NCBI GenBank assembly: GCA_036512455.1
Contig: DATCAT010000014.1
Coordinates: forward strand, 157,205-221,204
DNA: 64,000 bases
Direction of reading: 5' to 3'
Source: Rhizomicrobium sp.
GTDB lineage: Bacteria; Pseudomonadota; Alphaproteobacteria; Micropepsales; Micropepsaceae
Notes under the pieces: model-generated
Databases searched by the model: none
Told to the model about the DNA's origin: nothing
The model's input: only the letters and a program-made list of their open reading frames with translations
Shown: piece after piece, positions 2,069 to 37,818 of the stretch
Layout of the letters: each line of letters opens with the position of its first letter
Numbering within the stretch: the stretch's first letter is position 1
Translations under genes and position numbers: made by a program

Positions 2069-3242
2069 TATCGTACCCTGGCTGGAGCTTGCCCTGCGCT
2101 GGCTGCACGTCATCACCGGCATCGCCTGGATCGGCGCCTCGTTCTATTTCGTCTGGCTGGACGGCAACATCCGCAAGGTGGAGGGCGGCAATCCGCTCGT
2201 CGCCGGCGAGCTTTGGGCCGTGCATGGCGGCGGCTTCTATCACAATCAGAAATACCTGGTGGCGCCGGAACAGTTGCCGCCGCATCTGCACTGGTTCAAA
2301 TACGAGGCCTATTTCACCTGGATCAGCGGCTTCCTGCTGCTGGCGGTCATCTATTACTACGGCGCCAACGTTTTCCTGATCGACAAGGCGAAGCTGGCGC
2401 TTAACCCACCTGAGGCGATCGCCATCTCGCTCGCCTTCCTGGCCGGCGGCTGGTTCGTCTATGACGGGCTCTGCCGCTCGCCGCTGGGCAGGGACGGGCC
2501 GGTGTTCGGCGCGGCCTGGTTCCTGATCCTCACCGCCGCGGGCTTTGCCCTGACGCAAATCTTCAGCGACCGCGCCGCCTTCATCCATGTCGGCGCCATC
2601 GTCGGCACCGCGATGGTCGCCAACGTCTTCTTCGTCATCATTCCCAACCAGAAGAAAGTCGTCGCCGCGATGCTGGCCGGCCAGACGCCGGAGGCGCGGC
2701 TAGGCCTGCAGGCCAAGCAGCGCTCGCTGCACAACAACTACATGACCTTGCCGGTCCTGCTGATCATGATCAGCAATCACTATCCGATGCTCACCGGCAG
2801 CAAGATCAACTGGCTGGTGCTCGCGGCGCTGTCGCTCAGCGGCATCATGATCCGGCATGTCTTCAACCTGCGGCACAAGGGTGAACTGAACTGGCTCCTG
2901 GCGTTCGGCGCGGTGCTGGTGTTCGTCGCGACGATGGCGATTACGATCAGCGTGCAGCACGGTGCGCAGACGGCGCCGTCCGCGCCCGTTCCCTATGCCA
3001 CCGCGCGCGCGATCGTGGATCGCCATTGCGTCATGTGCCACAGCGCCCACCCGACGCATGCGGGCATCGCCACGGCGCCGGCCGGCCTCGACTTCACGCG
3101 CGACGACGTCGTCAAGAACAACGCCTCGCGCGTCCTGCTGCAGGCGGTGACCACCAAGGCCATGCCGCTCGGCAACGAGACCGGCATGACGGACGCGGAG
3201 CGCGCCCAGCTCGGCGCCTGGCTGCGCCAAGGTCCGCCATGA
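2058..3242 (+). CDS. puuD: Urate hydroxylase PuuD (DUF989 membrane domain plus C-terminal cytochrome c)
   Basis: RWLHVITGIAWIGASFYF, WAVHGGGFY, HWFKYEAYFTWISG, RSLHNNY; heme motif CVMCH; purine operon context. Confidence 0.9.
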   Translation: MDVDIVPWLELALRWLHVITGIAWIGASFYFVWLDGNIRKVEGGNPLVAGELWAVHGGGFYHNQKYLVAPEQLPPHLHWFKYEAYFTWISGFLLLAVIYYYGANVFLIDKAKLALNPPEAIAISLAFLAGGWFVYDGLCRSPLGRDGPVFGAAWFLILTAAGFALTQIFSDRAAFIHVGAIVGTAMVANVFFVIIPNQKKVVAAMLAGQTPEARLGLQAKQRSLHNNYMTLPVLLIMISNHYPMLTGSKINWLVLAALSLSGIMIRHVFNLRHKGELNWLLAFGAVLVFVATMAITISVQHGAQTAPSAPVPYATARAIVDRHCVMCHSAHPTHAGIATAPAGLDFTRDDVVKNNASRVLLQAVTTKAMPLGNETGMTDAERAQLGAWLRQGPP

Positions 3243-23461: not shown

Positions 23462-24064
23462 CTAGCGGCCGGCGGACACCGGCACGGCGTCGGCGTTCGC
23501 CCGCGCCAGCAGGTCCCGCAGCCAGTCATTGACGACGGCGTCGATCACCAGATGCACGCGATCCGTCGTGCCCTTGTTGGCGACGCGATGCGGATCGGTC
23601 AGGCGCAGATACCAGGCGCTGCCGGGTTCCATGACGACGCGCCTGCGGTTCAACTCGAACTCCACGCCGGGATTGGTCGCGACCGGAATGTGGATGCGCA
23701 CGGTTCCGTCCTCGGCGCTGAGATCGGGATCGCTGTGTTCCTTTATGATCGAGCCGGGGGTGAGGCGCATCAGCCGAACGCTGCGCAGCTCGCAGGAAAA
23801 GCGCGCCAGGAGGTCGCGGATATTCGGGCAGAGGCCGAGCAGCGGGGTATCTTCGAAAGCCGTCGCGGCCGGATCGGAATAGATCATCATGACCGGATGG
23901 CGCGCCCCGGCCGGCGCGCGCAGCGGCAGCACGCTCCAATCGCCTTCGTAGTTCTGCTTGACGAAATGCTCTATCCAGTCCTGCGACGACAGGCGCTCCA
24001 AATCGCGCGACAGCGCCGCGGGCTCGAAGGCGAGCGGCAGACGCAGACGGTCGGGAAAAGTCAT
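23462..24064 (-). CDS. Aspartyl/asparaginyl beta-hydroxylase family (2OG-Fe(II))
   Basis: VRLMRLTPGSIIKEHSD, RIHIPVATN, HRVANKG, RVHLVID. Confidence 0.88.
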   Translation of the reverse strand: MTFPDRLRLPLAFEPAALSRDLERLSSQDWIEHFVKQNYEGDWSVLPLRAPAGARHPVMMIYSDPAATAFEDTPLLGLCPNIRDLLARFSCELRSVRLMRLTPGSIIKEHSDPDLSAEDGTVRIHIPVATNPGVEFELNRRRVVMEPGSAWYLRLTDPHRVANKGTTDRVHLVIDAVVNDWLRDLLARANADAVPVSAGR

Positions 24065-24222: not shown

Positions 24223-25146
24223 GTGCTGAATTCCTATTGCGTGTCGGGCTTGTCGGTCGCCAGCGAGGTCGACCTGCCGGGGCTCATCGGCAAGCCGGCC
24301 GGTCCGCCGGATGTGTCCATCCGCCGGCGTCGTGTACCGCTGGCGCTGGAGAATGCCAGTTCCAAGGGCCCGACCTGGGAAATCGCCGGCGAGCGATTTT
24401 TGCTGCGCATCCCGGGCATCGCGCGCTTTCTGCTCAGCGGCGGGCGCGAGATCGACTTCGAACTCGAAGACGGGGCGACGCTGGGCGACGCCGCGATCTT
24501 CCTCGTCGGCTCGGTCTTCGGCATCCTGCTGCATCAGCGCCGGCGAGTGGTTCTCCACGCCAGTGCTGTCTGCGTGAACGGCAAGGCAGTGCTGTTCTGT
24601 GGACCTTCGGGCGCGGGCAAATCGACGCTCGCGGCGGCGCTCGGGCAACGCGGCTACCCCCTTCTGACCGACGATGTCTGCGCCGTCACCGTGGAGGACG
24701 CCGCGGCGCCATTGGTGCATCCCGATGGGCGCCAGTTGAAGCTATGGCTGCAATCGATCGAGCGGCTCGATCTGGCGGCGCGGCGCGGCGAACGGGTCCG
24801 GACCTGCCTGGAAAAATTCTACGTCGAGTCGGAAAAGTCGGTCGGCGAGCCGCTGGCGCTCGGCGCCGTCTACGCGCTGCGCGAAGCCCGTCCGCCGCAC
24901 GCGCCGGGCATCGACACGCCCAACGTGGTCGACTCTGCGCTTCTTTTGCGGCGCAACGCCTACCGTCCCCTGCTCGTGGGCCGCATGGGGCAGAAGGCGA
25001 TTTACTTTCATGCCGCGACGACGATCGCCAATGTCGCGGGAATTTTTCATCTTTCGCGAGTCTTGGATTTCGCGGCGTTGCCGGATGTCGCCGCGTCGCT
25101 GGAGCGGCATTGGCGGACGCTCGGCCTGCTCGGCAAGGCTGTGTGA
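24223..25146 (+). CDS. HPr-kinase-like kinase (lasso tailoring kinase type)
   Basis: LHASAV, Walker A GPSGAGKSTL, LLTDD. GTG start; translationally coupled to the sulfotransferase. Confidence 0.85.
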   Translation: MLNSYCVSGLSVASEVDLPGLIGKPAGPPDVSIRRRRVPLALENASSKGPTWEIAGERFLLRIPGIARFLLSGGREIDFELEDGATLGDAAIFLVGSVFGILLHQRRRVVLHASAVCVNGKAVLFCGPSGAGKSTLAAALGQRGYPLLTDDVCAVTVEDAAAPLVHPDGRQLKLWLQSIERLDLAARRGERVRTCLEKFYVESEKSVGEPLALGAVYALREARPPHAPGIDTPNVVDSALLLRRNAYRPLLVGRMGQKAIYFHAATTIANVAGIFHLSRVLDFAALPDVAASLERHWRTLGLLGKAV

Positions 25147-26069
25147 TGCGCAGCGTCTGGCTCGCCTCCTATCCGAAGTCCGGCAACACCTGGCTGCGGA
25201 TGCTGATCGCGAACCTGTCGGCGACGGACGGCGCGCCGGTCGACATCAACGACTTGCCGGAGCGCGGCGGCATCGCCAGCGCGCGCGGGCCGTTCGACCA
25301 TCTGCTGCTGATCGATTCCGGCCTGCTGAGCCATGACGAGGCCGATGCTTTGCGTCCGCTGGTTTATGAGGAGCTGGCGCGCGGCGCCGAGGACGACGCG
25401 TACGACAACCCCGAGGCCGCGCCGCCGGTCCGCTTCATCAAGGTGCACGACGCCTATACGCTGACGCCGAACGGCGAGCCGCTTCTGGCGGGCAAAAAAG
25501 GAGCGGACGGCGCCATCGTCATCGTGCGCGATCCGCGCGACGTGGCACCGTCGCTCGCCAACCACAATGGCAGCAGCATCGACGACGCGATCACCTTCAT
25601 GAACGACAAGGCGGCGGCCTTCTGCGCCAGAAGGAACCGGCAGCCCAGTCAACTGCGCCAGCAGCTCCCCGGCTGGAGCGGACACATCGCGACCTGGCTC
25701 GATCAAACCGACATTCCGGTTCACCTTGTCCGCTACGAGGACTTGAAGGCCGATCCGGTTGCCGTGTTGCGCCGGGCGCTTCAGTTCGCGGACCGCGCGG
25801 CCACGGACGAAGAGATACGGCGCGCGGCGGCGTTCGCGGATTTCGGGCAGTTGCGCGCGCAGGAACTGGCGAAGGGGTTTCGCGAAGGGCCGCGCCCGCT
25901 GCAGGGCGGGAATTTTTTCCGCCGCGGCGAGGCGGGCGGCTGGCGCAGCGAATTGACGGCCGAACAGGTTCAGCGCATTGAATCCGAACACGCCGCGATG
26001 ATGCTGCGCCTTGGCTACGCGCCGGCGTCCGCGGAAAACCCGGCCCGCGCCATGGGGGAGACGAGATGA
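25146..26069 (+). CDS. PAPS-dependent sulfotransferase (SULT-like)
   Basis: 5'-PSB YPKSGNTWLR, 3'-PB VRDPRDV, RYEDL, FFRRGEAGGW. Confidence 0.9.
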   Translation: MRSVWLASYPKSGNTWLRMLIANLSATDGAPVDINDLPERGGIASARGPFDHLLLIDSGLLSHDEADALRPLVYEELARGAEDDAYDNPEAAPPVRFIKVHDAYTLTPNGEPLLAGKKGADGAIVIVRDPRDVAPSLANHNGSSIDDAITFMNDKAAAFCARRNRQPSQLRQQLPGWSGHIATWLDQTDIPVHLVRYEDLKADPVAVLRRALQFADRAATDEEIRRAAAFADFGQLRAQELAKGFREGPRPLQGGNFFRRGEAGGWRSELTAEQVQRIESEHAAMMLRLGYAPASAENPARAMGETR

Positions 26070-26341
26070 GAGTGCAAAAGAAGGGCGACTGGCTGGCCGC
26101 GAAAGTCGGCGACGAACTGGTCATGATGAGTGCCGAGAAGGGCAACTATATCGGACTGAGCGAGGTCGGTGCGCGCATCTGGGAACTGATCGAAACACCG
26201 CAGGATGTCGAGGCGGTCTGCAGCCAATTGCAGGCGGAGTACGACGTCACACCCGAGGCCTGCCGCCTCGAAGTCGAGTCTTTTCTCAACGAGCTGGTGA
26301 AACATGGCGCGATTGCGCTCGATCCGCCGCCTGCTGCGTAG
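26066..26341 (+). CDS. PqqD-family RiPP recognition element (lasso B1)
   Basis: 91 aa; YIGLSEVGARIWELIE, LQAEYDVTPEAC..EVESFLNEL; adjacent to B2. Confidence 0.9.
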   Translation: MRVQKKGDWLAAKVGDELVMMSAEKGNYIGLSEVGARIWELIETPQDVEAVCSQLQAEYDVTPEACRLEVESFLNELVKHGAIALDPPPAA

Positions 26342-26780
26342 GTTCGCGCGGATCGGCAATCGCCGCCGCGCCCTGGTGGTCGAGGCGGTGGCGTGGCTGC
26401 TGACGGCGCGGCTCTGCCTGATCTTCATTCCGTTTCCGCGGCTGGCGCGCCGTCTGGGCACATTCGCGCCGCCGACCGATCGGCGCGCCCTGCTGGCGAA
26501 GGCGCCGGGCCCGGACGAACATGCGCGGCTGGCGGGCGAGGTTAGTTGGGCCGTCACCCGCTCGGCGCGCTATGCTCCGTTCAAGGCTGTCTGCTTGCCG
26601 CAGGCGATGGCCGCCCGCATGATGCTCAAGCGGCGCGGCGTTTCCAGCGTGCTGCACTTCGGCGCCGCCAAGGGACAGGACAAACCGCTCGACGCGCATG
26701 CCTGGCTGGATGCCGCGGGTGTCGAGGTCACCGGCTATCCGGTGGCGAAGGGGTTCGCGGAGATCGCGTGCTTCGTGTGA
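26304..26780 (+). CDS. Lasso peptide leader peptidase B2 (transglutaminase-like)
   Basis: Catalytic Cys and His in AVCLPQAMA and DAHAWL; VLHFG strand. Confidence 0.9.
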   Translation: MARLRSIRRLLRRFARIGNRRRALVVEAVAWLLTARLCLIFIPFPRLARRLGTFAPPTDRRALLAKAPGPDEHARLAGEVSWAVTRSARYAPFKAVCLPQAMAARMMLKRRGVSSVLHFGAAKGQDKPLDAHAWLDAAGVEVTGYPVAKGFAEIACFV

Positions 26781-26797
26781 GCAATCGATAACAATGG

Positions 26798-27493
26798 TTG
26801 GGGCGACGGCCCATGTCGATGATCGAACCCGGACAGGACGATAAAGCCGCGATGCCGGCAGCCAAGGCCATGATGCCGCCCTATCTCGTGCTGCGGGATT
26901 TTCTCGACGAAGAGACGGTGGAGGGACTGCTCGCGCACGCCCGGGTCCACCAATCCGATTTCGCGCCGACGAAAGTCGGTTCGAAGGCGGTCAACAACTC
27001 GGTTCGCGTCTCGCTGGGTCTGCGCGGCCTCGGCGACTACCGGCGGGTGCTGAAGAGCAGGCTGTTCGACCTGGTCCCGAGGCTCATCGCTGAGTTGCAG
27101 GTAACGCCCTTTGCAGAGCCCAAACTCGAGACCGAATTGGTGGCGCATGGCGATGGGGCGTTTTACAGACGCCATATCGACACCCAAACGGCGCGCTACG
27201 ACGACGTGCGGCAGATACGCGTCCTGAGCGGCGTCTATTATTTCCATGCCGAGCCCAAGGCGTTCAGCGGCGGCGCCTTGCGGCTTTTCGCCATCGGGCC
27301 CGAGCCCGCGCCGCATGTCGATATCGAGCCGCTGCGCAACAGCCTGCTGGTCTTCCCCTCCTGGGCGCCGCATGAGGTCAGGCCGGTGCAGTGTCCGTCG
27401 AACAATTTCATGGACTCGCGTTTCGCGATCAATTGCTGGCTTCTGCGCGCCAAACCCGCCGCGGCGGCCGATCCCGTAGAGCCCGCCGGCTAG
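26798..27493 (+). CDS. 2OG-Fe(II) oxygenase (prolyl-hydroxylase-like); start codon uncertain
   Basis: YRRHIDT (HxD), LSGVYYF, FSGGALRL, PHEVRPV, SRFAINCW. Confidence 0.85.
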   Translation: MGRRPMSMIEPGQDDKAAMPAAKAMMPPYLVLRDFLDEETVEGLLAHARVHQSDFAPTKVGSKAVNNSVRVSLGLRGLGDYRRVLKSRLFDLVPRLIAELQVTPFAEPKLETELVAHGDGAFYRRHIDTQTARYDDVRQIRVLSGVYYFHAEPKAFSGGALRLFAIGPEPAPHVDIEPLRNSLLVFPSWAPHEVRPVQCPSNNFMDSRFAINCWLLRAKPAAAADPVEPAG

Positions 27494-27513: not shown

Positions 27514-28707
27514 TCAGTACTCTTCGTCATCGCGCGGTCTGATCAGGTTGAGGTCGAAGGCGATGGCGATGCGCGGCTCGGTTCCGCGCGTCGGCACGAC
27601 GGAATGGAAGAAATGCGACGGGAAAATCGTCGCCACGCCCGCGACCGGCTTGATGTAGCGTTTCCCCCAGCACGGCTTCCGGCCTTCGGCGTCATCACGC
27701 CACGGGCCCACCAGGAGCGCGCCGGCCCTGTCGTCTGCGCCTTCATTCGGGGGTATCGAGACGTGATAGACGCCCGAGACATAGGCATATTTGTGCAGAT
27801 GCGCCGGATGGCTATCGCCTGCGTGAACGACATTGGCGCCGGTGACGAGAATTCCCTCCGCCGGCGCGCCCGGCATGATCTCGTCGAGTCCGCGATTTGG
27901 AAAATCCGCGAGATATCGTTCGATCGCGGCGCGCATGAAGACGGTGATCGCCGCATAGGCACGTTCGTGCGCCAGACCCAGATGCTCGGTGCGCAGGAAA
28001 TCGTAGGTCCGCCGGCGCGCCAGGCCGGGACTGTCCAATATCTCCCCAGCCAGCATGGCATTGAAGTTCTCGATGCCGCCGAATTCCGGCGTCGGTTCGA
28101 ACGGCACCTGCCAAACGTGACGATCCAGATCGACCAGCTTTCGCGCTTCGTCGACGCGGCCCGCGCGGTCGAGCCCGATGGCGCGAAAGCCGCGCGCGAC
28201 GGTGCAATTGGCATAGCCGGGCGCAAGCGTGTCGCAAAATGCCAGCAGGGCGTTGTCGTCGGGATCGCGCGCCAGGCCTTGCAGCAGAGCAGCGGCCGAT
28301 TCGTAGGCTGCCGGGCTGGTTCGCATCGCCGCGTAGAACGCGTCGCGCGAATCGTCCCGCCGGCGAAGGTCTCTAAGCGCAGCCCCGCGCAGGTGATGGA
28401 AACTGGCGATGTTCGGATGGGACCCGGCTGCCAGCGCGCGATCGCAGACCTGCAAGGCGTCTTGCGCCCTGCCCAGCATGAAATAACATCGCGCCAGCGC
28501 AAACTCGCGCAGGGATACGCCGTCCGGCGCCCGGGCGCGCGTGAACGCCTCCGCGGCTTCATCGAATTGCCCCAGACGGAAGAGGACATCGCCGAGCCGC
28601 GCCAGTTTTTCGGAATCGCGCGGCCATCGCGCTACGAGTTCGCGGTGCAACGCAAGCTGTACGTCCAGAGGGACGGGTCGCGGCGCATCGGCGTCGATCC
28701 AGCGCAT
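27514..28707 (-). CDS. TPR repeats plus putative 2OG-Fe(II) oxygenase domain
   Basis: N-terminal TPR helices (LGDVLFRLGQFDEAAEAF); C-terminal HPAHLH..YVSGVYHV, FPSHFFHSVVP, RIAIAFD. Confidence 0.75.
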   Translation of the reverse strand: MRWIDADAPRPVPLDVQLALHRELVARWPRDSEKLARLGDVLFRLGQFDEAAEAFTRARAPDGVSLREFALARCYFMLGRAQDALQVCDRALAAGSHPNIASFHHLRGAALRDLRRRDDSRDAFYAAMRTSPAAYESAAALLQGLARDPDDNALLAFCDTLAPGYANCTVARGFRAIGLDRAGRVDEARKLVDLDRHVWQVPFEPTPEFGGIENFNAMLAGEILDSPGLARRRTYDFLRTEHLGLAHERAYAAITVFMRAAIERYLADFPNRGLDEIMPGAPAEGILVTGANVVHAGDSHPAHLHKYAYVSGVYHVSIPPNEGADDRAGALLVGPWRDDAEGRKPCWGKRYIKPVAGVATIFPSHFFHSVVPTRGTEPRIAIAFDLNLIRPRDDEEY

Positions 28708-28927: not shown

Positions 28928-29788
28928 GTGACGCGGGACGCAGCGACGGCAGAGAGTCCGAGGCGGCGGTACGACCTGACGTCCGCAGCCGCCGACTATG
29001 CGCCCTGGCAGGGCGCGCCGCTGCGAACGCTCGTGATCTGCACACAGCAGAGGTCCGGCAGCACGCTGCTGGGCGAGGCGATGTATTTCGCCGGCGGCAT
29101 GGGATGTCCGTTGGAGTATTTCCATTCCGGCTTCCGCCCGGACTTCGAAGCGCGCTTTCAGCCGGCGGACATTCACGCCTACGCCGCCACGCTGCACGAA
29201 CTTCGAACCGACACGAGCGGCGTGTTTTCCGTCAAACTGTTTTGGCAGGACGCCATCGACCTGGTTCGCGAAATCGCGCCGTCCGAATTTCATTGGCGGC
29301 GCAACGGCCATGCCATGCAACTCGATCCCGATGCCCATCGCCGCATCTTCGCGATCCTTGCGAATCTGGTGCCGAACCCCACGCTCGTTTTCCTCCGCCG
29401 CCGCGACACGATTCGTCAGGCTGTTTCCTTGTTCATGGCCGGAAGGAGCCGCCAATGGCGTCAGCTTTCGCCAGGCAAAGGCTCCGGCGCCAGGGCGACG
29501 GTGGCCTATGACTTCCATCGAATATTCCGCTTTCTTTCCACGATACAAAGAACCAACACGCATTGGACGAACTTCTTCGGCGCCAATGGCCTGGCGCATT
29601 ACGAGATGGTCTACGAAGATCTCGAAAGCGACTATCAAGGCACGCTGCGGCGGTTCTTCGATGCCCTCGGCCGGCAGGATGCCGCGATCGCGGCGCCGCG
29701 ATTGCACAAGCAGTCCGATATCCACTCCGAGGAGCAGTTGCAGCGCTTCCTGTCCGAATTCCGCCACAGGTCGGGTCGGGAAGCCTGA
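28928..29788 (+). CDS. Stf0-family sulfotransferase
   Basis: ICTQQRSGSTLL, PLEYFH, VFSVKLFW, LRRRDTIRQAVS, MVYEDL. Confidence 0.85.
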   Translation: MTRDAATAESPRRRYDLTSAAADYAPWQGAPLRTLVICTQQRSGSTLLGEAMYFAGGMGCPLEYFHSGFRPDFEARFQPADIHAYAATLHELRTDTSGVFSVKLFWQDAIDLVREIAPSEFHWRRNGHAMQLDPDAHRRIFAILANLVPNPTLVFLRRRDTIRQAVSLFMAGRSRQWRQLSPGKGSGARATVAYDFHRIFRFLSTIQRTNTHWTNFFGANGLAHYEMVYEDLESDYQGTLRRFFDALGRQDAAIAAPRLHKQSDIHSEEQLQRFLSEFRHRSGREA

Positions 29789-29808: not shown

Positions 29809-31719
29809 TCAGCGATTGCCCCGCCGGAACCATTCGATGTAGCGGGCCTGGATGAAATACACGACGGCCTGACGCGTGTCGTATTCGGAGCCGGAATTGT
29901 GGTCGTCGGCCCGCCGCCGCGTCAGCATCTTGCGCATGCGCGGAAAATCGAAGCGGTGCGAGAGTTTGCCGTCGCCTTCCATGCGATCGATCTCGGCCAG
30001 AATTTGCGGCTCGATGCTCTTGGCCATGGCCAGAAAATCGGGCTTGAGATCGTCATTGCCCCGGCCGCGCGTTTGATATTCGGGCGGATACAGGTCTTTG
30101 AGCGCCTGGCGCGCGAGGTAACGTTCGCGGCCGCCCTTGACCCAGAGATCCTCCGGAATAGCGAGCGCCAGTTCGATCACCCGCTTGTCGTGAAAGGGCT
30201 GGGTGAATTCGAGGCCGCAGGCGGCCGGAATGCGCGAGCCGGCAAGGGCGCGGCCGTTCTGGTGGCTTTCCAGCGCCCTTGTCATGCGCGCGCGTCTTTG
30301 CGCGCCGCTGACGGGCTTTGACGCGCGGGCCTCGATGCCGGCGGAGGCCTGCACCTTCACCAGCGGCCAGGTCGAACCGAACAGCGCCAGGCCGTGGCGG
30401 TGACGCATTCTCACGCGATTGATTTGCTGCGGCAGCAGGTTCGCCACCACTTCGGCCCAGGCAATTCGCCAGACGCCCGCGCCGCTGTGGCGCCGATAAG
30501 CGCGGAACTCGGAAACGAATTCGCGCAGGCGGCCCTGGCGCAGCAGACTGTAGAGCCACGGATGGTTTCTCGGATTGAGCGTGTAGTCGCCGCCATGACC
30601 GTCCATGATGACCTTGGCGCCCGCGGCCGCCGCCGTCGCATGGATGTCGTCGGTGATATAGCCGCCCGCGCTCGTGGGACCCTCGCCGCCGAAGAACGAT
30701 TTCTCCATCGCCGTGAAAATGCTGCGTCCGGCGCCTGTGACATAGCGAACGTCGAGATGCGGCATGAACCTGGAGCAGATCTCGGCCCAGCGCCGGGCGT
30801 GGCGGATCGTGCCGCGATAGTCTTGCGGCATCGCCGAGCAGATGCAGATGAGTTTGCGGTTCTGCGCCGCAACAATGGGGCCGGCGAGGGCGGCGATGGC
30901 GGTGGAATCGAAACCGCCGCCGAAGAACAGCGCTCCGGGCTGGGTGGTGCGCCGCAAGCGGCAGGCCACCGCTTCGCCCAGCACGCGGCGATAGGCGGCG
31001 ACATAATAGGCTTCGTCCTGGCCTTGGTGACGCGGATCCGCCCTCGGTTGCCAATAGCGCCGCACGCTTGTGGCGCCGTCGGCGGCGACCGTCATCACGG
31101 TGCCGCCGGAAATCGCCGATATGCCGTCGAACGGTGTCACTGCAATTTCCACATTGCGGTTGAGCAGTTTAGCCGAGCCGAGCATGTCGTCCAGCAGCAC
31201 ACGCGGAACGTCGCCGAGCGCCCACAATCCCTTGATCTCCGTCGCGAAAGCGAAAAAGCCTTCGGCGCGATGAAAGGCGATGCGACGCTGGCCCATGTGA
31301 TCGCGTGCCAGGACAAGTTTTCCGGCGCGCGCGTCCCAGATGGCGAACGCGAAATCGCCAAGCAGGCGATCGACGCAGTCCTCGCCCCATCGCGCGTAGG
31401 CGCGCAGCAGGAGCGCACTGTCGGCCATGTCGCGCAGCGTCTCGGTGTCGATGCCGAGCGCCTTCGCAAGCTCCTCGCGGTTGTCGAGCCGAAGATCGGC
31501 GACCAGCGTCAGGGCGCCGGCCTCGTCGCGCAGCGGCTGGGCATCGAAGCGATCCTCCTGTGTGACGCGCATGAGCAGGTGGGCGAGGCCGACGGGGCCG
31601 TCATGCCAGGCGCGGCGGCGATCGGGGCCGAGATGACCCATCGCGTTCATCTGCCGTTCGAGATCGCGCGCGGCGACGGCCGCGCCATCGAAGCGCAGGA
31701 TTCCGCAGATGCCGCTCAC
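29809..31719 (-). CDS. Asparagine-synthase-like lasso cyclase (C protein)
   Basis: Starts MSGICG (Ser replaces the catalytic Cys), ARDHMGQR, PP-loop variant GGGFDS, MDGHGGD, QPFHDKRVIE. Lies downstream of the precursor on the same strand. Confidence 0.85.
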   Translation of the reverse strand: MSGICGILRFDGAAVAARDLERQMNAMGHLGPDRRRAWHDGPVGLAHLLMRVTQEDRFDAQPLRDEAGALTLVADLRLDNREELAKALGIDTETLRDMADSALLLRAYARWGEDCVDRLLGDFAFAIWDARAGKLVLARDHMGQRRIAFHRAEGFFAFATEIKGLWALGDVPRVLLDDMLGSAKLLNRNVEIAVTPFDGISAISGGTVMTVAADGATSVRRYWQPRADPRHQGQDEAYYVAAYRRVLGEAVACRLRRTTQPGALFFGGGFDSTAIAALAGPIVAAQNRKLICICSAMPQDYRGTIRHARRWAEICSRFMPHLDVRYVTGAGRSIFTAMEKSFFGGEGPTSAGGYITDDIHATAAAAGAKVIMDGHGGDYTLNPRNHPWLYSLLRQGRLREFVSEFRAYRRHSGAGVWRIAWAEVVANLLPQQINRVRMRHRHGLALFGSTWPLVKVQASAGIEARASKPVSGAQRRARMTRALESHQNGRALAGSRIPAACGLEFTQPFHDKRVIELALAIPEDLWVKGGRERYLARQALKDLYPPEYQTRGRGNDDLKPDFLAMAKSIEPQILAEIDRMEGDGKLSHRFDFPRMRKMLTRRRADDHNSGSEYDTRQAVVYFIQARYIEWFRRGNR

Positions 31720-31885
31720 GGCGCCGCTTCGCGCAACGGGCCGGCGACACGGTCGCGTTCTAACAGCGTCGAAAGTCCGTGATGTGCGGATAAGGGCCGG
31801 CGCATCGTTTCGCTACCGGTTTCACCCTGCCAATGTCGTCCTGCGCGGCAAGCACATTTCCGCTGCGGGGGTCTGCAAACCGCCG

Positions 31886-32050
31886 CTAGCTTCCTGACTG
31901 GGCGGTATTGGGAGATGAGTTATGGTTTTCTGTAATGTCGGGGATGTCCTTGTTCGTCCCACTGGCTTCCGCCGTCACGATCACTTTCGGCGTTGACCAC
32001 GGCTTGCGCGCTGCAGCGCAACCCGATTCGGTGGACACTTTCTCAGACAT
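31886..32050 (-). CDS. Putative lasso/RiPP precursor, 54 aa: MSEKVSTESGCAAARKPWSTPKVIVTAEASGTN-KDIPDITENHNSSPNTAQSGS
   Basis: WxxPxV leader motif, Thr at -2, Glu at core position 8, C-terminal Ser. Located 166 bp upstream of the cyclase. Confidence 0.8.
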   Translation of the reverse strand: MSEKVSTESGCAAARKPWSTPKVIVTAEASGTNKDIPDITENHNSSPNTAQSGS

Positions 32051-32259
32051 GGCCGTCTTCCCCGCAGCACGACAACGCACATAAGTTGACACAAAGTAAT
32101 GGCGCAAATCAATCGCCTTCGGCGAACGCCGTCTTTATTGCGTGGAAATGGTTCAAAAACTATTGCCTGAGGCAGAGTTCCTTGGTAAATAAGATTAAGA
32201 CTAGCCACCTCGCTGCGGTGGTGGGCTCCTGACGCGGCGACTAATCCATGGGGTGATTG

Positions 32260-32778
32260 ATGACCAGTCCGTATCTCGGCGAAATCAAGCTTATGCCCTG
32301 GAGCTTCGCACCGCGAGGTTGGGCGTTTTGTGCTGGGCAAATACTGTCAATTCAGCAGAACACAGCGTTGTTCTCCCTGCTCGGTACAATCTACGGCGGT
32401 AACGGTCAGACGACGTTCGGTTTGCCGGATCTGCGCGGCCGCGTGCCGATCCATCGCGACCAGCAGGGTCAATATCCGCAAGGCGACATGGAAGGCGAGG
32501 AGCAGGAAACGCTCTCGCTGAGCGAGATGCCGGCGCACAATCATTCCTTCGTGGGTACGTCGGCGGCCGGCGGCGCGGGCTCGCCGACCGGTCTGACAAT
32601 TCTGGCCGCCCCGAATCTGCCGGCGAATGCTTACTACGGCCCCGACACGACGCCGACACCGATCGCGCCGACGAGCGTCAGTCCCGTCGGCGGCAATCAG
32701 CCTCACCAAAATATGCAGCCCTTCCTCACGATGAATTATTGCATCGCGCTGAACGGCATATTCCCGGCGCGCAACTAG
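32260..32778 (+). CDS. Phage tail-collar domain protein 1
   Basis: YLGEIKL..FAPRGWAFCAGQ, LFSLLGTIYGGNGQTTFGLPDLRGR; C-terminal HQNMQPFLTMNYCIALNGIFP. Confidence 0.92.
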   Translation: MTSPYLGEIKLMPWSFAPRGWAFCAGQILSIQQNTALFSLLGTIYGGNGQTTFGLPDLRGRVPIHRDQQGQYPQGDMEGEEQETLSLSEMPAHNHSFVGTSAAGGAGSPTGLTILAAPNLPANAYYGPDTTPTPIAPTSVSPVGGNQPHQNMQPFLTMNYCIALNGIFPARN

Positions 32779-32821
32779 ACGACGGCGGGACGCACAAACC
32801 AATTTACGGAGGACGGGCGGT

Positions 32822-33361
32822 ATGGTTACACCTTTTATCGGAGAGCTTCGGCCGTTTGCGGGCAACTTCGCGCCGAGAAACTGGGCGATGGCGAATGGGC
32901 AGCTTTTGAGCATCGCGCAGAACGCGGCGCTGTTCTCGCTGCTCGGCACCACCTATGGCGGCAACGGGGTCAACACGTTCGCCTTGCCAAATCTGCAAGG
33001 CACGCTGGCGATCAATCAAGGCCAGGGACCGGGGCTGACGTCGCGCACGTTGGGCGAGATCGGCGGAACCGAGAACGTGACGCTGCTGCAGGCGAACTTG
33101 CCAATCCACAACCATACGATGAACGCGACAACCCAGCCCGCGGTGGCGAATGCGCCGCCGGGAAACACTGTTCTGGGCGGCACGATCACGGCACCCGGCT
33201 CGCTCTATATCACGCCGGGTAGTCCGACGCCCGTTCCGGAAGTATTTCCGGCCAATGCCTGCGGCATCGCGGGCAGTAGCTTGCCGCATCCCAACATGAT
33301 GCCGGCGCTGGTGATCACCTACATCATCGCCTTGTCGGGCATTTTCCCCAGCCGCAATTGA
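32822..33361 (+). CDS. Phage tail-collar domain protein 2
   Basis: FIGELRPFAGNFAPRNW, YGGNGVNTFALPNLQG; C-terminal HPNMMP..YIIALSGIFPSRN. Confidence 0.92.
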   Translation: MVTPFIGELRPFAGNFAPRNWAMANGQLLSIAQNAALFSLLGTTYGGNGVNTFALPNLQGTLAINQGQGPGLTSRTLGEIGGTENVTLLQANLPIHNHTMNATTQPAVANAPPGNTVLGGTITAPGSLYITPGSPTPVPEVFPANACGIAGSSLPHPNMMPALVITYIIALSGIFPSRN

Positions 33362-33380
33362 AACACGAGGAAGACCGAAC

Positions 33381-33926
33381 ATGAGCAATATGTACATCGG
33401 AGAAATCCGGCCGTTTGGCTTCACCTTCGCACCCCAGAACTGGGCGTTTTGCGATGGCCAGCTGATGTCCATCGCCCAGAACTCGACGCTGTACGCGGTG
33501 ATCGGCACGACCTATGGCGGCGACGGACAGACCACCTTCGGGCTTCCCGATCTGCGCGGCCGCGCGACGATGCACCAGGGCACGGGTCCGGGGCTGACCC
33601 AGCGCGTGATCGGCCAATCCTTTGGAACGCCGAATGTGACGCTGATAGCCTCGCAAATGCCGGCCCATGTGCACACTTTGAACGCCGCCCAGCCCGCGCT
33701 GCACGGCGAAGGCTTGTTCACGGGCACGCCGGGTCCGACCGTGCTTTATTCCAACAGCGCGCCCGGCAAGGCTTGGCATGGCGAGGCGAGTCCGCCGCCC
33801 TATGTCAATTTCTCGAACAAAGCGATCTCGATCAATGGCGGGTCGCTGCCGCACGACAATCTGCAGCCGCTCCTGTCGGTCAATTTCTGCATTGCGCTCT
33901 TCGGGATTTTCCCGTCGCAGAACTAG
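33381..33926 (+). CDS. Phage tail-collar domain protein 3
   Basis: YIGEIRPFGFTFAPQNWAFCDGQ, YGGDGQTTFGLPDLRGR; C-terminal HDNLQP..NFCIALFGIFPSQN. Confidence 0.92.
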   Translation: MSNMYIGEIRPFGFTFAPQNWAFCDGQLMSIAQNSTLYAVIGTTYGGDGQTTFGLPDLRGRATMHQGTGPGLTQRVIGQSFGTPNVTLIASQMPAHVHTLNAAQPALHGEGLFTGTPGPTVLYSNSAPGKAWHGEASPPPYVNFSNKAISINGGSLPHDNLQPLLSVNFCIALFGIFPSQN

Positions 33927-33963
33927 CCGTTCGGGGAGGCGCTGACGAAACGGGGCGGCGGCC

Positions 33964-34482
33964 ATGTTCGCGTTGCCGTCCTCGCTTGTCTCTGAAGGCT
34001 TCTCGCTGCGGCCGGAGACTGAAGCGGATATTCCGTTCCTCGCCGGGCTCTTCGCCTCGACGCGCGCCGAGGAGATGGAGCGCATCGTTGAATGGACCGC
34101 CGAACAGAAGCAGGCGTTTCTGTTCGATCAGTTCCGGCTGCAGCGCCACCACTACTACACCCATTTCCCGAACTGCGAGTTCCTCGTCCTGGAACGCGGC
34201 GGCGTGGCCGGCGGGCGAATTTATCTCGACAGCACGCCCAATTCGCTCGATCTCATCGACATCTCGCTCCTTCCCCCATGGCGCGGCCGGGGCACGGGCA
34301 CGACGCTGCTGGACGCCGTCATCGCCGCCGCCCGCGCCGGCGGCCGGCGTGTCACGATTTTCGTCGAAAAGTTCAATCCGGCGCTGAACCTCTACCGCCG
34401 CTTGGGATTCCGCGAGATCGCCGATACCGGGCTCTATCTCGAAATGGAATGGCGCGCGGACGCCGCCGGGAACGTCAGTTGA
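33964..34482 (+). CDS. GNAT acetyltransferase
   Basis: DISLLPPWRGRGTGTTLL, NPALNLYRRLGF. Confidence 0.9.
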   Translation: MFALPSSLVSEGFSLRPETEADIPFLAGLFASTRAEEMERIVEWTAEQKQAFLFDQFRLQRHHYYTHFPNCEFLVLERGGVAGGRIYLDSTPNSLDLIDISLLPPWRGRGTGTTLLDAVIAAARAGGRRVTIFVEKFNPALNLYRRLGFREIADTGLYLEMEWRADAAGNVS

Positions 34483-34777
34483 ACGTGCAATCGTAGAATA
34501 CGCCGCGTTCGTCCTTGCCCGTCGGGACCAGGAACAGCGTCAGGCTGCCCAATGCCGCGTTCTGCAGGCGCCACAGACGCTGCTCGAGGATGCGCGGATC
34601 CTGGGCCAGGAACGTCAACGAAAAGGGCGGCCGGAGCGCCGGCCGCTGACCGCGGACCGCCAGCGCGTCGGCCGCCTTCAGGGTCAGCGAGATCGGCGGG
34701 ACATCGGTTTCGTCGACCATGAAGATCTGTCCGATCAGGCCGGTGAAGTCCTCCAGAACAAATTGCCGTTCCGTCAT
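34475..34777 (-). CDS. DUF6916-like protein
   Basis: 100 aa; RPPFSLTF, LEQRLWRL, LFLVP, YDCTFN. This family typically accompanies tail-collar triplets. Confidence 0.75.
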   Translation of the reverse strand: MTERQFVLEDFTGLIGQIFMVDETDVPPISLTLKAADALAVRGQRPALRPPFSLTFLAQDPRILEQRLWRLQNAALGSLTLFLVPTGKDERGVFYDCTFN

Positions 34778-35103: not shown

Positions 35104-36324
35104 TCAGGTTTTTCCGGCGGTCTGCCCAAGCCGCAGGGCTTCCAGTCGGCGGTAGCTCTCGGCCAGATGACGGTCCACCGCGGTCCGCATCGCAGCCGTC
35201 GTCGCCCGCTGCTTGGAGATTGAATCGGGGGCGAATGTCTCGCTGGGGGATTTCGCGTTGTAGCGCGCTTTTTCCGCCATGACGTCGTGCTCGGATGCGC
35301 TGTAGGCGACGCCGAAATGCGGCAATATGGCCGTCGCCAGCGCCTCCGGCAGCTGGCGGTAATTGACCAGCAGCCCGTTGCCCTTGGGAAACGCCTCCAG
35401 CACGGCATCGCAGATCTTTGCCAGCACGCGCGCGCAATAGTCTTCGTCCGGCACGCCGCCCGGCAATTGCAGATCGTAAAACGGCGGCGGGAAAAATTCC
35501 GGGACCATCTGCGTGCCGCGTTGCCATGCCTGCGAGACCAGCACTTCGAGCGGGTCGCGATAGAGAAACACCCAGGGCACGGACGGGAAGGCTCGCCGGA
35601 ACCAGGGCAGCGCCAGCGTGTGCCAGCTGTCCAGCTTGACGAAATAGTGTCTCTCGCCGCCGCCGCGCATTTGGCCGAAGGCCGCGATCATCGCCGTCAG
35701 GAGCGCGGTATTCCTCTCATCGTTTCGGACGCGGCAGAGTTGCACAACGGCGTCGATCGGGCTTGCCTCGGAGACGACGATGTTCTGCGGCAGGGCGCCG
35801 AGCATCTGGGCAGCCAGCGTCGAGCCGCAGCGCGACATGTGAAAAATGAAGCCGCTCGGCTGCAACACCGGCAACTCATGCGACCATCGCGCGAGATCCG
35901 GCAGCGGCGTGCGGAAGCGAAACAGCCGGTTGAATGGCCGGCGCAAGATCTGCCGGATCGAGTCTTCATAGAACGGTTCGCTCAGGCGCCGGTCGCCGAA
36001 ATACGCCCAATCGACGGCAAGCCGATCGCCTTGCCCGAACATCTGGATCGGAAGCCAGCCCTTTTGCAGCGGTGAGGGGGCGGCCAGGGGTGCCGCCACG
36101 AGGCGCTCCAGGCCCAAGGGATCGGGGCGCAAGAACGGCGTCAAATCGTCCGCTGCCAGGGCGATGGCGCGGGCCCGCGCCGCAGCGACCGTCCGTTCGA
36201 CGAATTGCGCAATGTCGTCAATCGTCCCCAGGGCGGCTTGCAGTGCGCCGTCGTTCAGGACGAGGACGCGAAAGCGATCCAGCTCGTGTCTTGCGCCGTT
36301 CGCCCCGTCCGCCACCATTTGCAT
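35104..36324 (-). CDS. Sulfotransferase-like P-loop protein
   Basis: FIFHMSRCGSTLA, FVKLDSW, FLYRDPLEVLVS. Confidence 0.75.
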   Translation of the reverse strand: MQMVADGANGARHELDRFRVLVLNDGALQAALGTIDDIAQFVERTVAAARARAIALAADDLTPFLRPDPLGLERLVAAPLAAPSPLQKGWLPIQMFGQGDRLAVDWAYFGDRRLSEPFYEDSIRQILRRPFNRLFRFRTPLPDLARWSHELPVLQPSGFIFHMSRCGSTLAAQMLGALPQNIVVSEASPIDAVVQLCRVRNDERNTALLTAMIAAFGQMRGGGERHYFVKLDSWHTLALPWFRRAFPSVPWVFLYRDPLEVLVSQAWQRGTQMVPEFFPPPFYDLQLPGGVPDEDYCARVLAKICDAVLEAFPKGNGLLVNYRQLPEALATAILPHFGVAYSASEHDVMAEKARYNAKSPSETFAPDSISKQRATTAAMRTAVDRHLAESYRRLEALRLGQTAGKT

Positions 36325-36409: not shown

Positions 36410-37741
36410 TTACGGCCGGTAGGTCAGCTGCAAGCCGGCGACGTTGACATAGGACTGGGTCGTGCCGGTCAGCGTGCCGCGCAGCGCCGCGCCCGGGATG
36501 GCCGGATTGAGCGCGACGTCCGTCTTCAGGTTGAACAGCCGCGAGGCCGTGACGTTCAGGTCCATGCTGCTGCTCAGGCGGCAGCGTACGCCCGCCGACA
36601 GCCAGATGCGGTCGGCGTCGGGAATGCGCGGCTCGCGCGTCGCGTCGGGCACGGGGCTTTGGTCGTAGGCGGCGCCGGCGCGAAACGCGAGGGATTGGCT
36701 GGCGCGATATTCCAGGCCGACTGAACCGAACAGCGTGTTGCGCCAGTGCGTCGTCGTCACGTCGTTGGGCTGCAACGGATTTGCCGCGATGACGGTGAGC
36801 TGGCGAAAGCGGCTCCAATGGGTCCAGTCCAGTTCCACCATGCCCGACCAGTTGCTGGAGAACTCGTTGCGCGCGCCGAACTCGACCATATCCGGCATGG
36901 TCAGCGGCGTCGTCTGGCGCGTGTCGGTGAACAGGCCCGTCACGGCGCGGATGGTGGCGCCGACGCCGGTGGCGTCCAGCGTGAAGGTCAGCGGCCCCTT
37001 CAGGTCGTGCTGCAGCGACGAGCGATAGGAGAGGCCCAAGGTCAGGCTGTCGCTGGGCCTGGCCATCACGCCGGCGGTGTAGCCGAACGTCCAGCTCTTG
37101 CCGCCGAGACGCGCGAAGCTGTCCTGCCCGCCGGGCACGGAGCCGGGGATGCCGTTCAGCGCCCCCAACGTGCCGGTGTCGATGGCGCTGGTCAGCGTGC
37201 CTTGCGCGTACTCGACCTGCAGGCCGGCACCGAAGGTGAGGCTTGGGCTCAGCTGATAGGAAATCGTCGGCGTGGCGTTGATCGTCAGGAGTTCGGTCTT
37301 CTGCGCGTCGTACCGTCCGGCCCAGGTCGCGGGATAGTCGGTTCGCAGGCCCCAGGGCGCGGAGATCTCCAGCCCGACGGCGATGCGGTCGGACAACCGA
37401 TGGCGAAAACCGAAGGCCGGAACCAGCGCGTCGCTGATGAAGCCGCTCGGCGTCAAACTTCCGCCGGTCGGATTGCCGGCCGAGGTCGTCGCCGATGCAT
37501 AGGTGCCCTTCGAGCCGGGCAGGATCGCGACCATGCTGATCGAAAAGTCCGTGTCCATGACGCCGGCCAGCGAGGCGGGATTGTAGGCCAGATAGCTCGC
37601 GTCGCTGCTGGTCGCGGCGGCGCCGGCATAGGCCGCGGCCATCGCGTCGGCACTGTGCTCCTTGAGGCCGTAACCGGCGCCGAGAGCGGGCGATGCCCCC
37701 AGGGCGAACAGGCCCAGGAAAACGAACGCGGTCCGGCGCAT
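36410..37741 (-). CDS. fadL: OmpP1/FadL/TodX outer-membrane hydrophobic-molecule channel
   Basis: Signal peptide, GYGLKEHSA hatch region, AYNPASL, YDQSPV..RIPDADRIWLSAG. Confidence 0.85.
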   Translation of the reverse strand: MRRTAFVFLGLFALGASPALGAGYGLKEHSADAMAAAYAGAAATSSDASYLAYNPASLAGVMDTDFSISMVAILPGSKGTYASATTSAGNPTGGSLTPSGFISDALVPAFGFRHRLSDRIAVGLEISAPWGLRTDYPATWAGRYDAQKTELLTINATPTISYQLSPSLTFGAGLQVEYAQGTLTSAIDTGTLGALNGIPGSVPGGQDSFARLGGKSWTFGYTAGVMARPSDSLTLGLSYRSSLQHDLKGPLTFTLDATGVGATIRAVTGLFTDTRQTTPLTMPDMVEFGARNEFSSNWSGMVELDWTHWSRFRQLTVIAANPLQPNDVTTTHWRNTLFGSVGLEYRASQSLAFRAGAAYDQSPVPDATREPRIPDADRIWLSAGVRCRLSSSMDLNVTASRLFNLKTDVALNPAIPGAALRGTLTGTTQSYVNVAGLQLTYRP

Positions 37742-37818
37742 GGTGAAATTCCTTTTCGGTATCGCAGAGCAGATCATATCGCTTGATCGTCCAACTCATT
37801 GAAATTGCGTGAAACTGC

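Follow-up and report, generated by a model that had tools for sequence, protein, structure and literature searches.

The 64,000-nucleotide stretch of DNA analysed here (the window) carries a lasso peptide gene cluster whose precursor probably gives rise to an alpha-linked Lys1-Glu8 lasso peptide, as predicted from the precursor and its relatives. In every lasso peptide, the ring is closed through the amine of core residue 1. The initial annotation of this DNA had proposed a core with Lys as residue 1 and Glu8 as acceptor; this is still the best reading, and the comparative data now behind it are far stronger than the single sequence. The precursor gene and its parts are as follows.

31886..32050, minus strand: precursor gene A, 54 aa plus stop (ATG at 32050, TAG at 31888-31886), identified by its translation and by the homologues P0006, P0007 and L027
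31952..32050, minus strand: leader, residues 1-33, with the motif RKPWSTPKVIV (WxxPxV) and Thr(-2)-Asn(-1)
31889..31951, minus strand: predicted core, residues 34-54, KDIPDITENHNSSPNTAQSGS, with the Lys1 codon at 31951-31949, the Glu8 codon at 31930-31928 and a C-terminal Ser

The translation, MSEKVSTESGCAAARKPWSTPKVIVTAEASGTNKDIPDITENHNSSPNTAQSGS, is identical to the peptide quoted in the initial annotation and, when divided at the predicted cut (marked by a slash here and below), reads MSEKVSTESGCAAARKPWSTPKVIVTAEASGTN/KDIPDITENHNSSPNTAQSGS. The gene lies upstream of the gene for cyclase C, in the same direction and at a spacing of 166 bp. A single-sequence search of 5.8 billion proteins returned P0006 (80% identical, E 8.5e-19) and P0007 (47% identical, E 6e-2), each of which adjoins a cyclase orthologue in a syntenic cluster. 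When these two and the window precursor were combined into a three-sequence profile, an orthologue was found in another genome of the genus (E 6.4e-25), likewise adjoining a cyclase orthologue. The gene is conserved in Rhizomicrobium-like genomes and in metagenomes, and several of the homologue genomes are labelled 'Rhizomicrobium sp.'. Codon comparison with the closest homologue gave 12 synonymous and 11 non-synonymous differences, and the RKPWSTPKVIV motif has undergone synonymous changes only, both relative to this homologue and relative to a 41%-identical orthologue. A purine-rich, Shine-Dalgarno-like stretch (GGGGAAG / GAGGGGAG) is present 6-8 nt 5' of the ATG in all four loci compared.

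A short open reading frame in DNA of 65% G+C, where spurious frames are plentiful, could be a chance frame that is never translated. The homologue profile E-values (1e-19 to 1e-25), the retention of the position beside the cyclase, the purely synonymous drift of the motif and the preserved ribosome-binding-like site all argue against this, and chance is effectively refuted because the frame is conserved. Sequence comparison thus confirms precursor A as a genuine conserved gene, in keeping with the earlier assignment of a lasso precursor to 31886-32050 and, for conservation, with the finding that the homologues in other genomes all lie beside cyclase orthologues. A longer form with a TTG start (73 aa, from 32107) was ruled out, since the homologues share the start MSEKVS/MAEKVS. 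A stem-loop at 31858-31890 on the minus strand, GCUAGCGGCGGUUUGCAGACCCCCGCAGC, starts at the precursor stop codon. The fold of the intergenic region between A and C was no more stable than that of shuffled sequence (z = +1.0), and no promoter-like site was found when one was sought.

The genes surrounding the precursor are listed below in the order of their coordinates.

23462..24064, minus strand: Asp/Asn beta-hydroxylase-like protein (PF05118, 6.8e-15)
24223..25146, plus strand: HPr-kinase-related kinase, the candidate C-terminal Ser kinase (TIGR04352, 1.4e-13, 50.6 bits, cut-off 200; PF07475, 6.4e-07, 29.5 bits, cut-off 33.3)
25146..26069, plus strand: sulfotransferase, Sulfotransfer_1 (PF00685, 1.1e-21)
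26066..26341, plus strand: B1, a PqqD-type RiPP recognition element, RRE (PF05402, 6.3e-21; NF033536, lasso PqqD, 6.6e-21)
26304..26780, plus strand: B2 leader peptidase, transglutaminase-like (NF033537, 86.9 bits, above the 33-bit cut-off; PF13471)
26798..27493, plus strand: 2OG-Fe(II) oxygenase (PF13640, 5.1e-17)
27514..28707, minus strand: TPR protein and putative 2OG-Fe(II) oxygenase (PF13759, 4.8e-17, plus TPR matches)
28928..29788, plus strand: Stf0-type sulfotransferase (PF09037, 3.7e-26)
29809..31719, minus strand: lasso cyclase C, Asn-synthetase-like, 636 aa (NF033535, E 5e-99, 332.7 bits, cut-off 525; Pfam Asn_synthase, GATase_6 and GATase_7)
32257..33926, plus strand: three tandem phage-tail-collar-domain genes, divergent from the precursor (PF07484, 1e-25 to 1e-29), found beside precursors in many related clusters
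33964..34482, plus strand: GNAT acetyltransferase, tied to the collar genes (PF00583, 1.2e-11)
34475..34777, minus strand: DUF6916 protein (PF21880, 3e-20)
35104..36324, minus strand: third sulfotransferase-fold protein, Sulfotransfer_3 (PF13469, 1.4e-06)

The cyclase, the B2 cysteine protease and the PqqD-type RRE occur together here, with the cyclase match falling below its cut-off. In B2, the Cys of AVCLPQA and the His of AHAWL are taken here to correspond to the usual lasso B2 catalytic motifs. By these family assignments, the locus is a lasso cluster with a split B protein (B1 and B2) and a cyclase, in a Rhizomicrobium-like alphaproteobacterium. It also holds genes for the HPr-kinase-like enzyme, three sulfotransferases and three oxygenases, and the collar/GNAT/DUF6916 genes. 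The cluster is flanked by a gene for a FadL/TodX-type outer-membrane channel (36410-37777), which is more strongly conserved beside related clusters (65-75% identity) than the cluster genes are; it may take part in transport or may simply be a chromosomal neighbour that has been conserved.

In the leader, the WxxPxV motif spans W18 to V23, and R15, W18, P21 and I24 are invariant in an alignment of nine sequences. WSTPKV is a variant of the YxxPxL-type lasso leader motif and is invariant in the relatives. Thr32 occupies position -2 of the window precursor.

About 80 related precursors served as the comparison set for the core start. A survey that used the cyclase rather than the precursor as its query recovered some 20 orthologues from the genus with identities of 45% or more, and the precursors beside the surveyed cyclases were of three kinds: 'x-x/K' precursors with Lys 6-8 residues before a conserved [D/E]-x-H acid (11 loci); 'T-x-[A/S/V]-K' precursors (6 loci); and cores of a classical or other kind that lack this Lys (7 loci). 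When 1.84 billion representatives were searched exhaustively with an HMM, a further 26 Lys-type precursors came up, along with three classical ones and two that fit neither description. The 46 Lys-type precursors counted below are related and not independent, and the counts of Lys are biased by the search profile, which contained a Lys column and supplied 26 of them, as well as by our having anchored each of the 46 on the Lys that gives an admissible ring.

Among these 46 related precursors, the residue at -2 is Thr in 16, Ser in 9, Ala in 8, Val in 3 and Ile in 2, so that Thr or an accepted substitute is found in 38; the same set of residues occurs in 17 of the 46 at -1 and in 7 of the 46 at -4. 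Thr(-2), which the initial annotation had singled out, is present in the window precursor but is not kept even in its closest relatives, where the residue is Ala, Ser and Ser. The same applies to the proposed T-x-K-x6-E signature: the Lys and the acid (Glu or Asp) at position 8 are retained on alignment of the homologues, while the Thr varies. The pattern that is conserved across the relatives is [T/S/A]-x-K-x-x-P-x-x-x-[D/E]. B1 retains a Tyr (in GNYIGLS) that aligns with Tyr33 of FusE, the residue proposed to contact Thr(-2). A correlation between this Tyr and Thr(-2) was sought and not found; this Tyr is retained in nearly every case, whatever stands at -2, and is therefore uninformative about it.

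When the window precursor is considered alone, six core starts are compatible with a ring of 7-9 residues. The relatives are more telling. Residues kept after the leader motif in P0006, P0007, L027, P0011, L028 and P0025 include Lys34, Pro37, the position-8 acid (Glu or Asp), His43 and a C-terminal Gly-Ser; if the cut falls as TN/K, the core starts with Lys34 as residue 1, has Glu41 as residue 8 and ends in Ser54. The core of the relatives shares K-x-x-P-x-x-x-[DE], and Glu/Asp8 is the sole acid conserved across them. The spacing from Lys to acid stays fixed at 7 even where the linker between motif and Lys gains 3-5 residues (L028, P0025, P0040, P0042 and P0049), and therefore the ring appears to be measured from the Lys and not from the leader motif. 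With Lys as residue 1, all 46 Lys-type relatives, anchored as they were on an admissible ring, have Asp or Glu at core position 7, 8 or 9, as does the window precursor with Glu8; the ring would have 8 residues in 28 of them, 9 in 9, 7 in 8, and 8 or 9 in the remaining one. Pro is found at core position 4 in 21 of the 46. Counted from the motif Trp, the Lys is at index 17 in 25 of the 46, and Gly1, Ala1 or Ser1 of classical relatives with the same leader is at index 16-17. The classical relatives used for this index comparison were the following.

P0027: TD/GGGVNVPE
P0028: TQ/AHVYTYTD
P0029: TE/SGASNVPE
L035: TQ/ASGTAYGCD

We favour the TN/K cut with a Lys1-Glu8 ring for the window peptide because Thr(-2), the distance from the motif, the conserved Lys and the sole conserved acid at position 8 all agree.

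Several relatives do not fit a Lys1 core or can also be read in another way. The T-x-[A/S/V]-K subgroup (the P0009 group, L067, L083, L077 and L029) obeys the Thr(-2) rule with Lys at position 2; read in this way, rings would have 8-9 residues in L029, L067, L083 and L077, and 10 in the P0009 group and in P0044. The P0009 group is large and has the invariant core AKTSSGFGFETHSPGSLNGS. With Lys as residue 1, the ring of this group and of P0044 would have 9 residues, but Thr would then be at -3. Ahead of the core, L071 and L076 (P0009 group; genomes G209 and G169) and P0044 have an invariant T-x-[A/S]-K, as in VTQ-AKTSSGFGFETHSPGSLNGS. In L082 (TK/GINPSYTFE) and L081 (SK/AHVTQYTD), a Lys is located at -1 of classical Gly1 and Ala1 cores. 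L049 and L052, like L082, do not fit Lys1 either, and P0061 and P0062 fit no simple rule.

Some further precursor-like frames were noticed in these loci. In L086 (5076-5402; G192:C348), the precursor, …GATEKVSSTSQHFSAGYFYS, has no Asp or Glu after the Lys and hence no visible ring acceptor, in a cluster that otherwise looks complete; degeneration of the copy, faulty assembly or another cause could lie behind this. In L069 (8237-8554; G209), a second precursor-like frame with a Cys-Cys pair in its core, …TVIAKSSSCCVVGDAHLASTVQITRES, is found just upstream of the Lys1 precursor, and its Lys-to-Asp distance would mean a 10-residue ring. The genome from which the window comes has a second lasso-type cluster on contig C2 (L131 1-11300), where two cyclase paralogues and two HPr-kinase-like genes accompany B1, B2 and an ABC transporter; its candidate precursor (2331..2164, minus strand), …KQPWHAPQARTRAVPSVTKNQVGGGGDHGICQS, likewise ends in Ser and has a Lys close to the predicted cut.

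If A is a true lasso precursor with a different core start, the ring could run from Gly31 to Asp38 (G1-D8), from Ser30 or Thr32 to Asp38, from Asn33 to Glu41 (a 9-residue ring) or from Asp35 to Glu41 (a 7-residue ring, in which case the leader would end in Lys). None of the six starts is sterically excluded in the window precursor, Gly or Ser at position 1 is the textbook choice, and L081 and L082 do place a Lys just before a classical core. However, close relatives that retain the rest of the core have Arg or Asn in place of Gly31 and Thr or Asn (Tyr in L029) in place of Asp38, and the rings G1-D8, S1-D9 and T1-D7 to Asp38 were ruled out on this ground. Lys as the last leader residue was ruled out as well, since it would leave 6-residue rings in four relatives (L043, L044, L046 and L072b). 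The residue that follows Lys is highly variable among the Lys-type precursors (T/V/S/L/I/N/Y/F/D), too much so for a conserved ring nucleophile position, and only the Lys1 start puts Thr at -2. More generally, a one-residue shift of the start would turn the rings of the 7- and 9-ring Lys-type members into rings of 6 or 10 residues, and Lys as residue 2 would require a 10-residue ring in the 9-ring members. A start other than Lys1 is therefore unlikely. As for the ring bond, the Lys is conserved whether counting from Thr(-2) puts it at position 1 or at position 2, as one would expect if Glu8 were joined to the Lys epsilon-amine, leaving a free alpha-amine or, in the T-x-A-K relatives, a one-residue stub; alternatively, some relatives may have 10-residue rings, which the P0009 group and P0044 need under the Thr(-2) rule unless Lys is the nucleophile or cleavage is shifted. 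We regard such a non-canonical ring as very improbable: there is no precedent for it in the literature searched; the same cyclase family serves Gly1, Ala1, Ser1 and Thr1 cores, which offer an alpha-amine only; and a relaxed -2 residue is a simpler explanation that covers all cases with rings of 7-9. Closure through the alpha-amine is proposed because of this pairing and because it is the sole chemistry established for the cyclase family. The epsilon-linked isopeptide suggested in the initial annotation finds nothing in our data to support it, given that close cyclases of the same family pair with Gly1, Ala1 and Ser1 cores.

The peptide might also be made and decorated (with phosphate, sulfate or hydroxyl groups) without being threaded or even cyclised, ending as a branched-cyclic or linear product, or the cluster might be silent. 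The tail lacks Phe, Tyr, Trp and Arg, and none of the cluster genes examined was recognised as coding for an exporter. Yet B1, B2 and C are intact and are conserved with the precursor in many genomes, which argues for a working cyclisation pathway. Benenodin-1 has an 8-residue ring that is flanked and held by Glu14 and Gln15 (PMC13352647), and His10, Gln19 and a phosphorylated Ser could do likewise here. The earlier argument that a tail with few plug residues points to a branched-cyclic product is accordingly weak: the benenodin-1 lock consists of Glu and Gln, and the tail of the window peptide has His10, several Asn residues, Gln19 and a probably phosphorylated Ser. The sequence by itself does not show whether the tail is threaded, but an unthreaded, uncyclised or unexpressed product seems to us rather unlikely.

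On the cyclase tree, whose backbone is unresolved, the Lys1-type enzymes fall into three well-supported clades, which may still have a single origin. Residues 558, 571, 613 and 615 of the cyclase (gene at 29809-31719) fall in alignment columns that are acidic only in the Lys1-type cyclases. At position 571, Glu is found in 9 of 11 Lys1-type cyclases (Glu571 here), Lys or Arg in 5 of 6 cyclases of the T-x-[A/S/V]-K type and Arg in 4 of 7 of the non-Lys type. This charge pattern may reflect complementarity to Lys1, a comparison that is confounded by phylogeny. A search of the PDB by sequence returned no lasso cyclase, and hence no structure on which to map the acidic columns.

A C-terminal Ser is present in the window precursor, as had been pointed out in the initial annotation, and in all related precursors but one (P0034). 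The kinase sequence shows LHAS, GAGKS and TDD, that is, a His / GKS / DD motif, with family matches below the curated cut-offs, and the kinase co-occurs with the cyclase in most related loci. Phosphorylation or polyphosphorylation of the C-terminal Ser by SyanK is established in a proteobacterium, and kinases of the PadeK/SyanK type act on the linear precursor (PMC8498205, PMC9266682). We propose, by analogy with PadeK and SyanK, that the HPr-kinase-like enzyme probably acts on the C-terminal Ser, because the kept Ser and the co-conserved candidate kinase match that precedent.

Most likely, the pathway would proceed as follows: B1 would bind the leader motif RKPWSTPKVIV; B2 would cut between Asn33 and Lys34, with Thr at -2, a site that we infer from the comparisons above; and the cyclase would adenylate the side chain of Glu41 (core Glu8) and join it to the alpha-amine of Lys34 (core Lys1). 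The predicted product is a class II-type lasso peptide with an 8-residue macrolactam and a 13-residue tail, in which the free epsilon-amine of Lys1 would remain on the ring as a conserved positive charge. The sulfotransferases and oxygenases, whose roles are read from family names, probably add further decorations.

The three collar genes and the GNAT gene, with or without the DUF6916 gene, recur as a fixed module (32257-34777 in the window; also L071, L074, L077, L080, L082, L085, L086 and L119-L130). Of 229 genomes of the genus, 27 have a GNAT homologue, and 21 of these have a cyclase match as well. The GNAT gene is beside tail-collar genes in 27 of the 28 GNAT loci checked, and of the 13 larger regions examined, 12 have the module within a lasso-type cluster, so that it is truly associated with the lasso-type clusters of the genus. 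Where the precursor was identified, its gene is divergent from the collar genes. The module sits in lasso-type clusters even where the cyclase is only 26-30% identical to that of the window. The initial annotation had suggested that the GNAT enzyme might acetylate the spare amine of Lys1. No dependency between GNAT and core Lys was found when tested by co-occurrence: the module accompanies lysine-free cores in L124 (TA/TNQNIVIHD...), L126 (SA/NSYQLHQD...) and L129 (AQ/GALNGAND...), and Lys1 cores occur with no GNAT gene within 10 kb in L069, L070, L072 and L073. Acetylation of Lys1 by the GNAT enzyme is thus not supported by this test.

The conservation of Lys1 in 46 distinct precursors and across at least three cyclase clades provides a natural system in which it would be interesting to investigate: how a lasso cyclase tells an alpha-amine from an epsilon-amine; how it accommodates a charged first residue; and which -2 residue the peptidase really needs. 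The predicted peptide, with a free amine on the ring beside a probable phosphate and sulfate, would be charged in a way that is unusual for a lasso scaffold. Should the simple alpha-linked Lys1-Glu8 reading be correct, the gain is modest: the first Lys1 example from nature, with a tailoring set that is new. An epsilon link or a 10-residue ring, if true, would be a ring chemistry or a ring size not yet seen in lasso peptides, and the work of a cyclase clade in which residue 571 may be charge-swapped (Glu571 here, Lys or Arg in non-Lys1 relatives).

The Lys1 precursor is best regarded as a variant of a known lasso type, because surveys have seen every residue but Pro at position 1 and because kinase-containing clusters of proteobacteria are known. 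Proteobacterial lasso clusters with a kinase and Ser-ending precursors have already been described (PMC8498205, PMC9266682). The window cluster shares with the paeninodin (PadeK) system and with SyanA/SyanK of Sphingobium yanoikuyae (Zhu et al. 2016, as summarised in PMC8498205 and PMC9266682) the split B1/B2 and C proteins and a precursor with a C-terminal Ser, and it has a candidate HPr-kinase homologue; the Syan system, like ours, is from an alphaproteobacterium, a likeness that holds by description. The window differs from both in its conserved Lys at the core start, its three sulfotransferase-fold proteins and three oxygenases, its three collar genes with GNAT and DUF6916, and its RKPWxxPxVIV leader.

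Phosphorylated precursors of Sphingomonadales and Bradymonadales (BsfA; PMC10368454) resemble ours in having a WxxPxL-type leader and in tolerating a non-Thr residue at -2, and the Sphingomonadales set also has a C-terminal Ser. They have Ile or Val at -2, in line with the occurrence of non-Thr residues there in kinase-type lasso precursors, and the first core residues in the supplementary alignment are A, G, S, Q, N, F and T (PMC10368454). The BsfA set is nevertheless another family, with the leader …LEELTVDLAAIA and no Lys1, and BsfK phosphorylates Ser3 and not the C-terminus (PMC10368454).

GNAT-containing lasso clusters of the albusnodin type (AlbT/IatT; bioRxiv 10.1101/2024.12.31.630886) have in common with the window a GNAT gene in the cluster and a conserved core Lys. 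Compared by description, the 112 known clusters of that type are all from actinomycetes, have Lys4 or Lys10 and carry the GNAT gene directly in the A-B-C operon, whereas the window GNAT gene is linked to three tail-collar genes, and the presence of such a GNAT gene does not follow that of core lysines.

The first core residue is small in almost all characterised natural products, and a 2026 paper, which notes this predominance, described Phe1 and Glu1 as unprecedented in characterised peptides; it also states that every residue but Pro was seen at this position in a large-scale analysis (PMC13632552). The palassoptides of that study share with our predicted peptide an 8-residue ring and a first residue that is not small (Phe1 and Glu1 there), and their cyclase, PalC, accepts all position-1 variants except Pro, Lys included (PMC13632552). 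Our search of the literature, which was incomplete, returned no characterised natural Lys1 lasso peptide. What is new here, as judged from the sequences compared, is most likely a clade with Lys as the conserved first residue, shared by a group of related clusters of soil bacteria, together with an unusually richly tailored cluster. The palassoptides are actinobacterial and have Lys1 only as an engineered variant, whereas in the clade of the window Lys1 is the conserved natural state.
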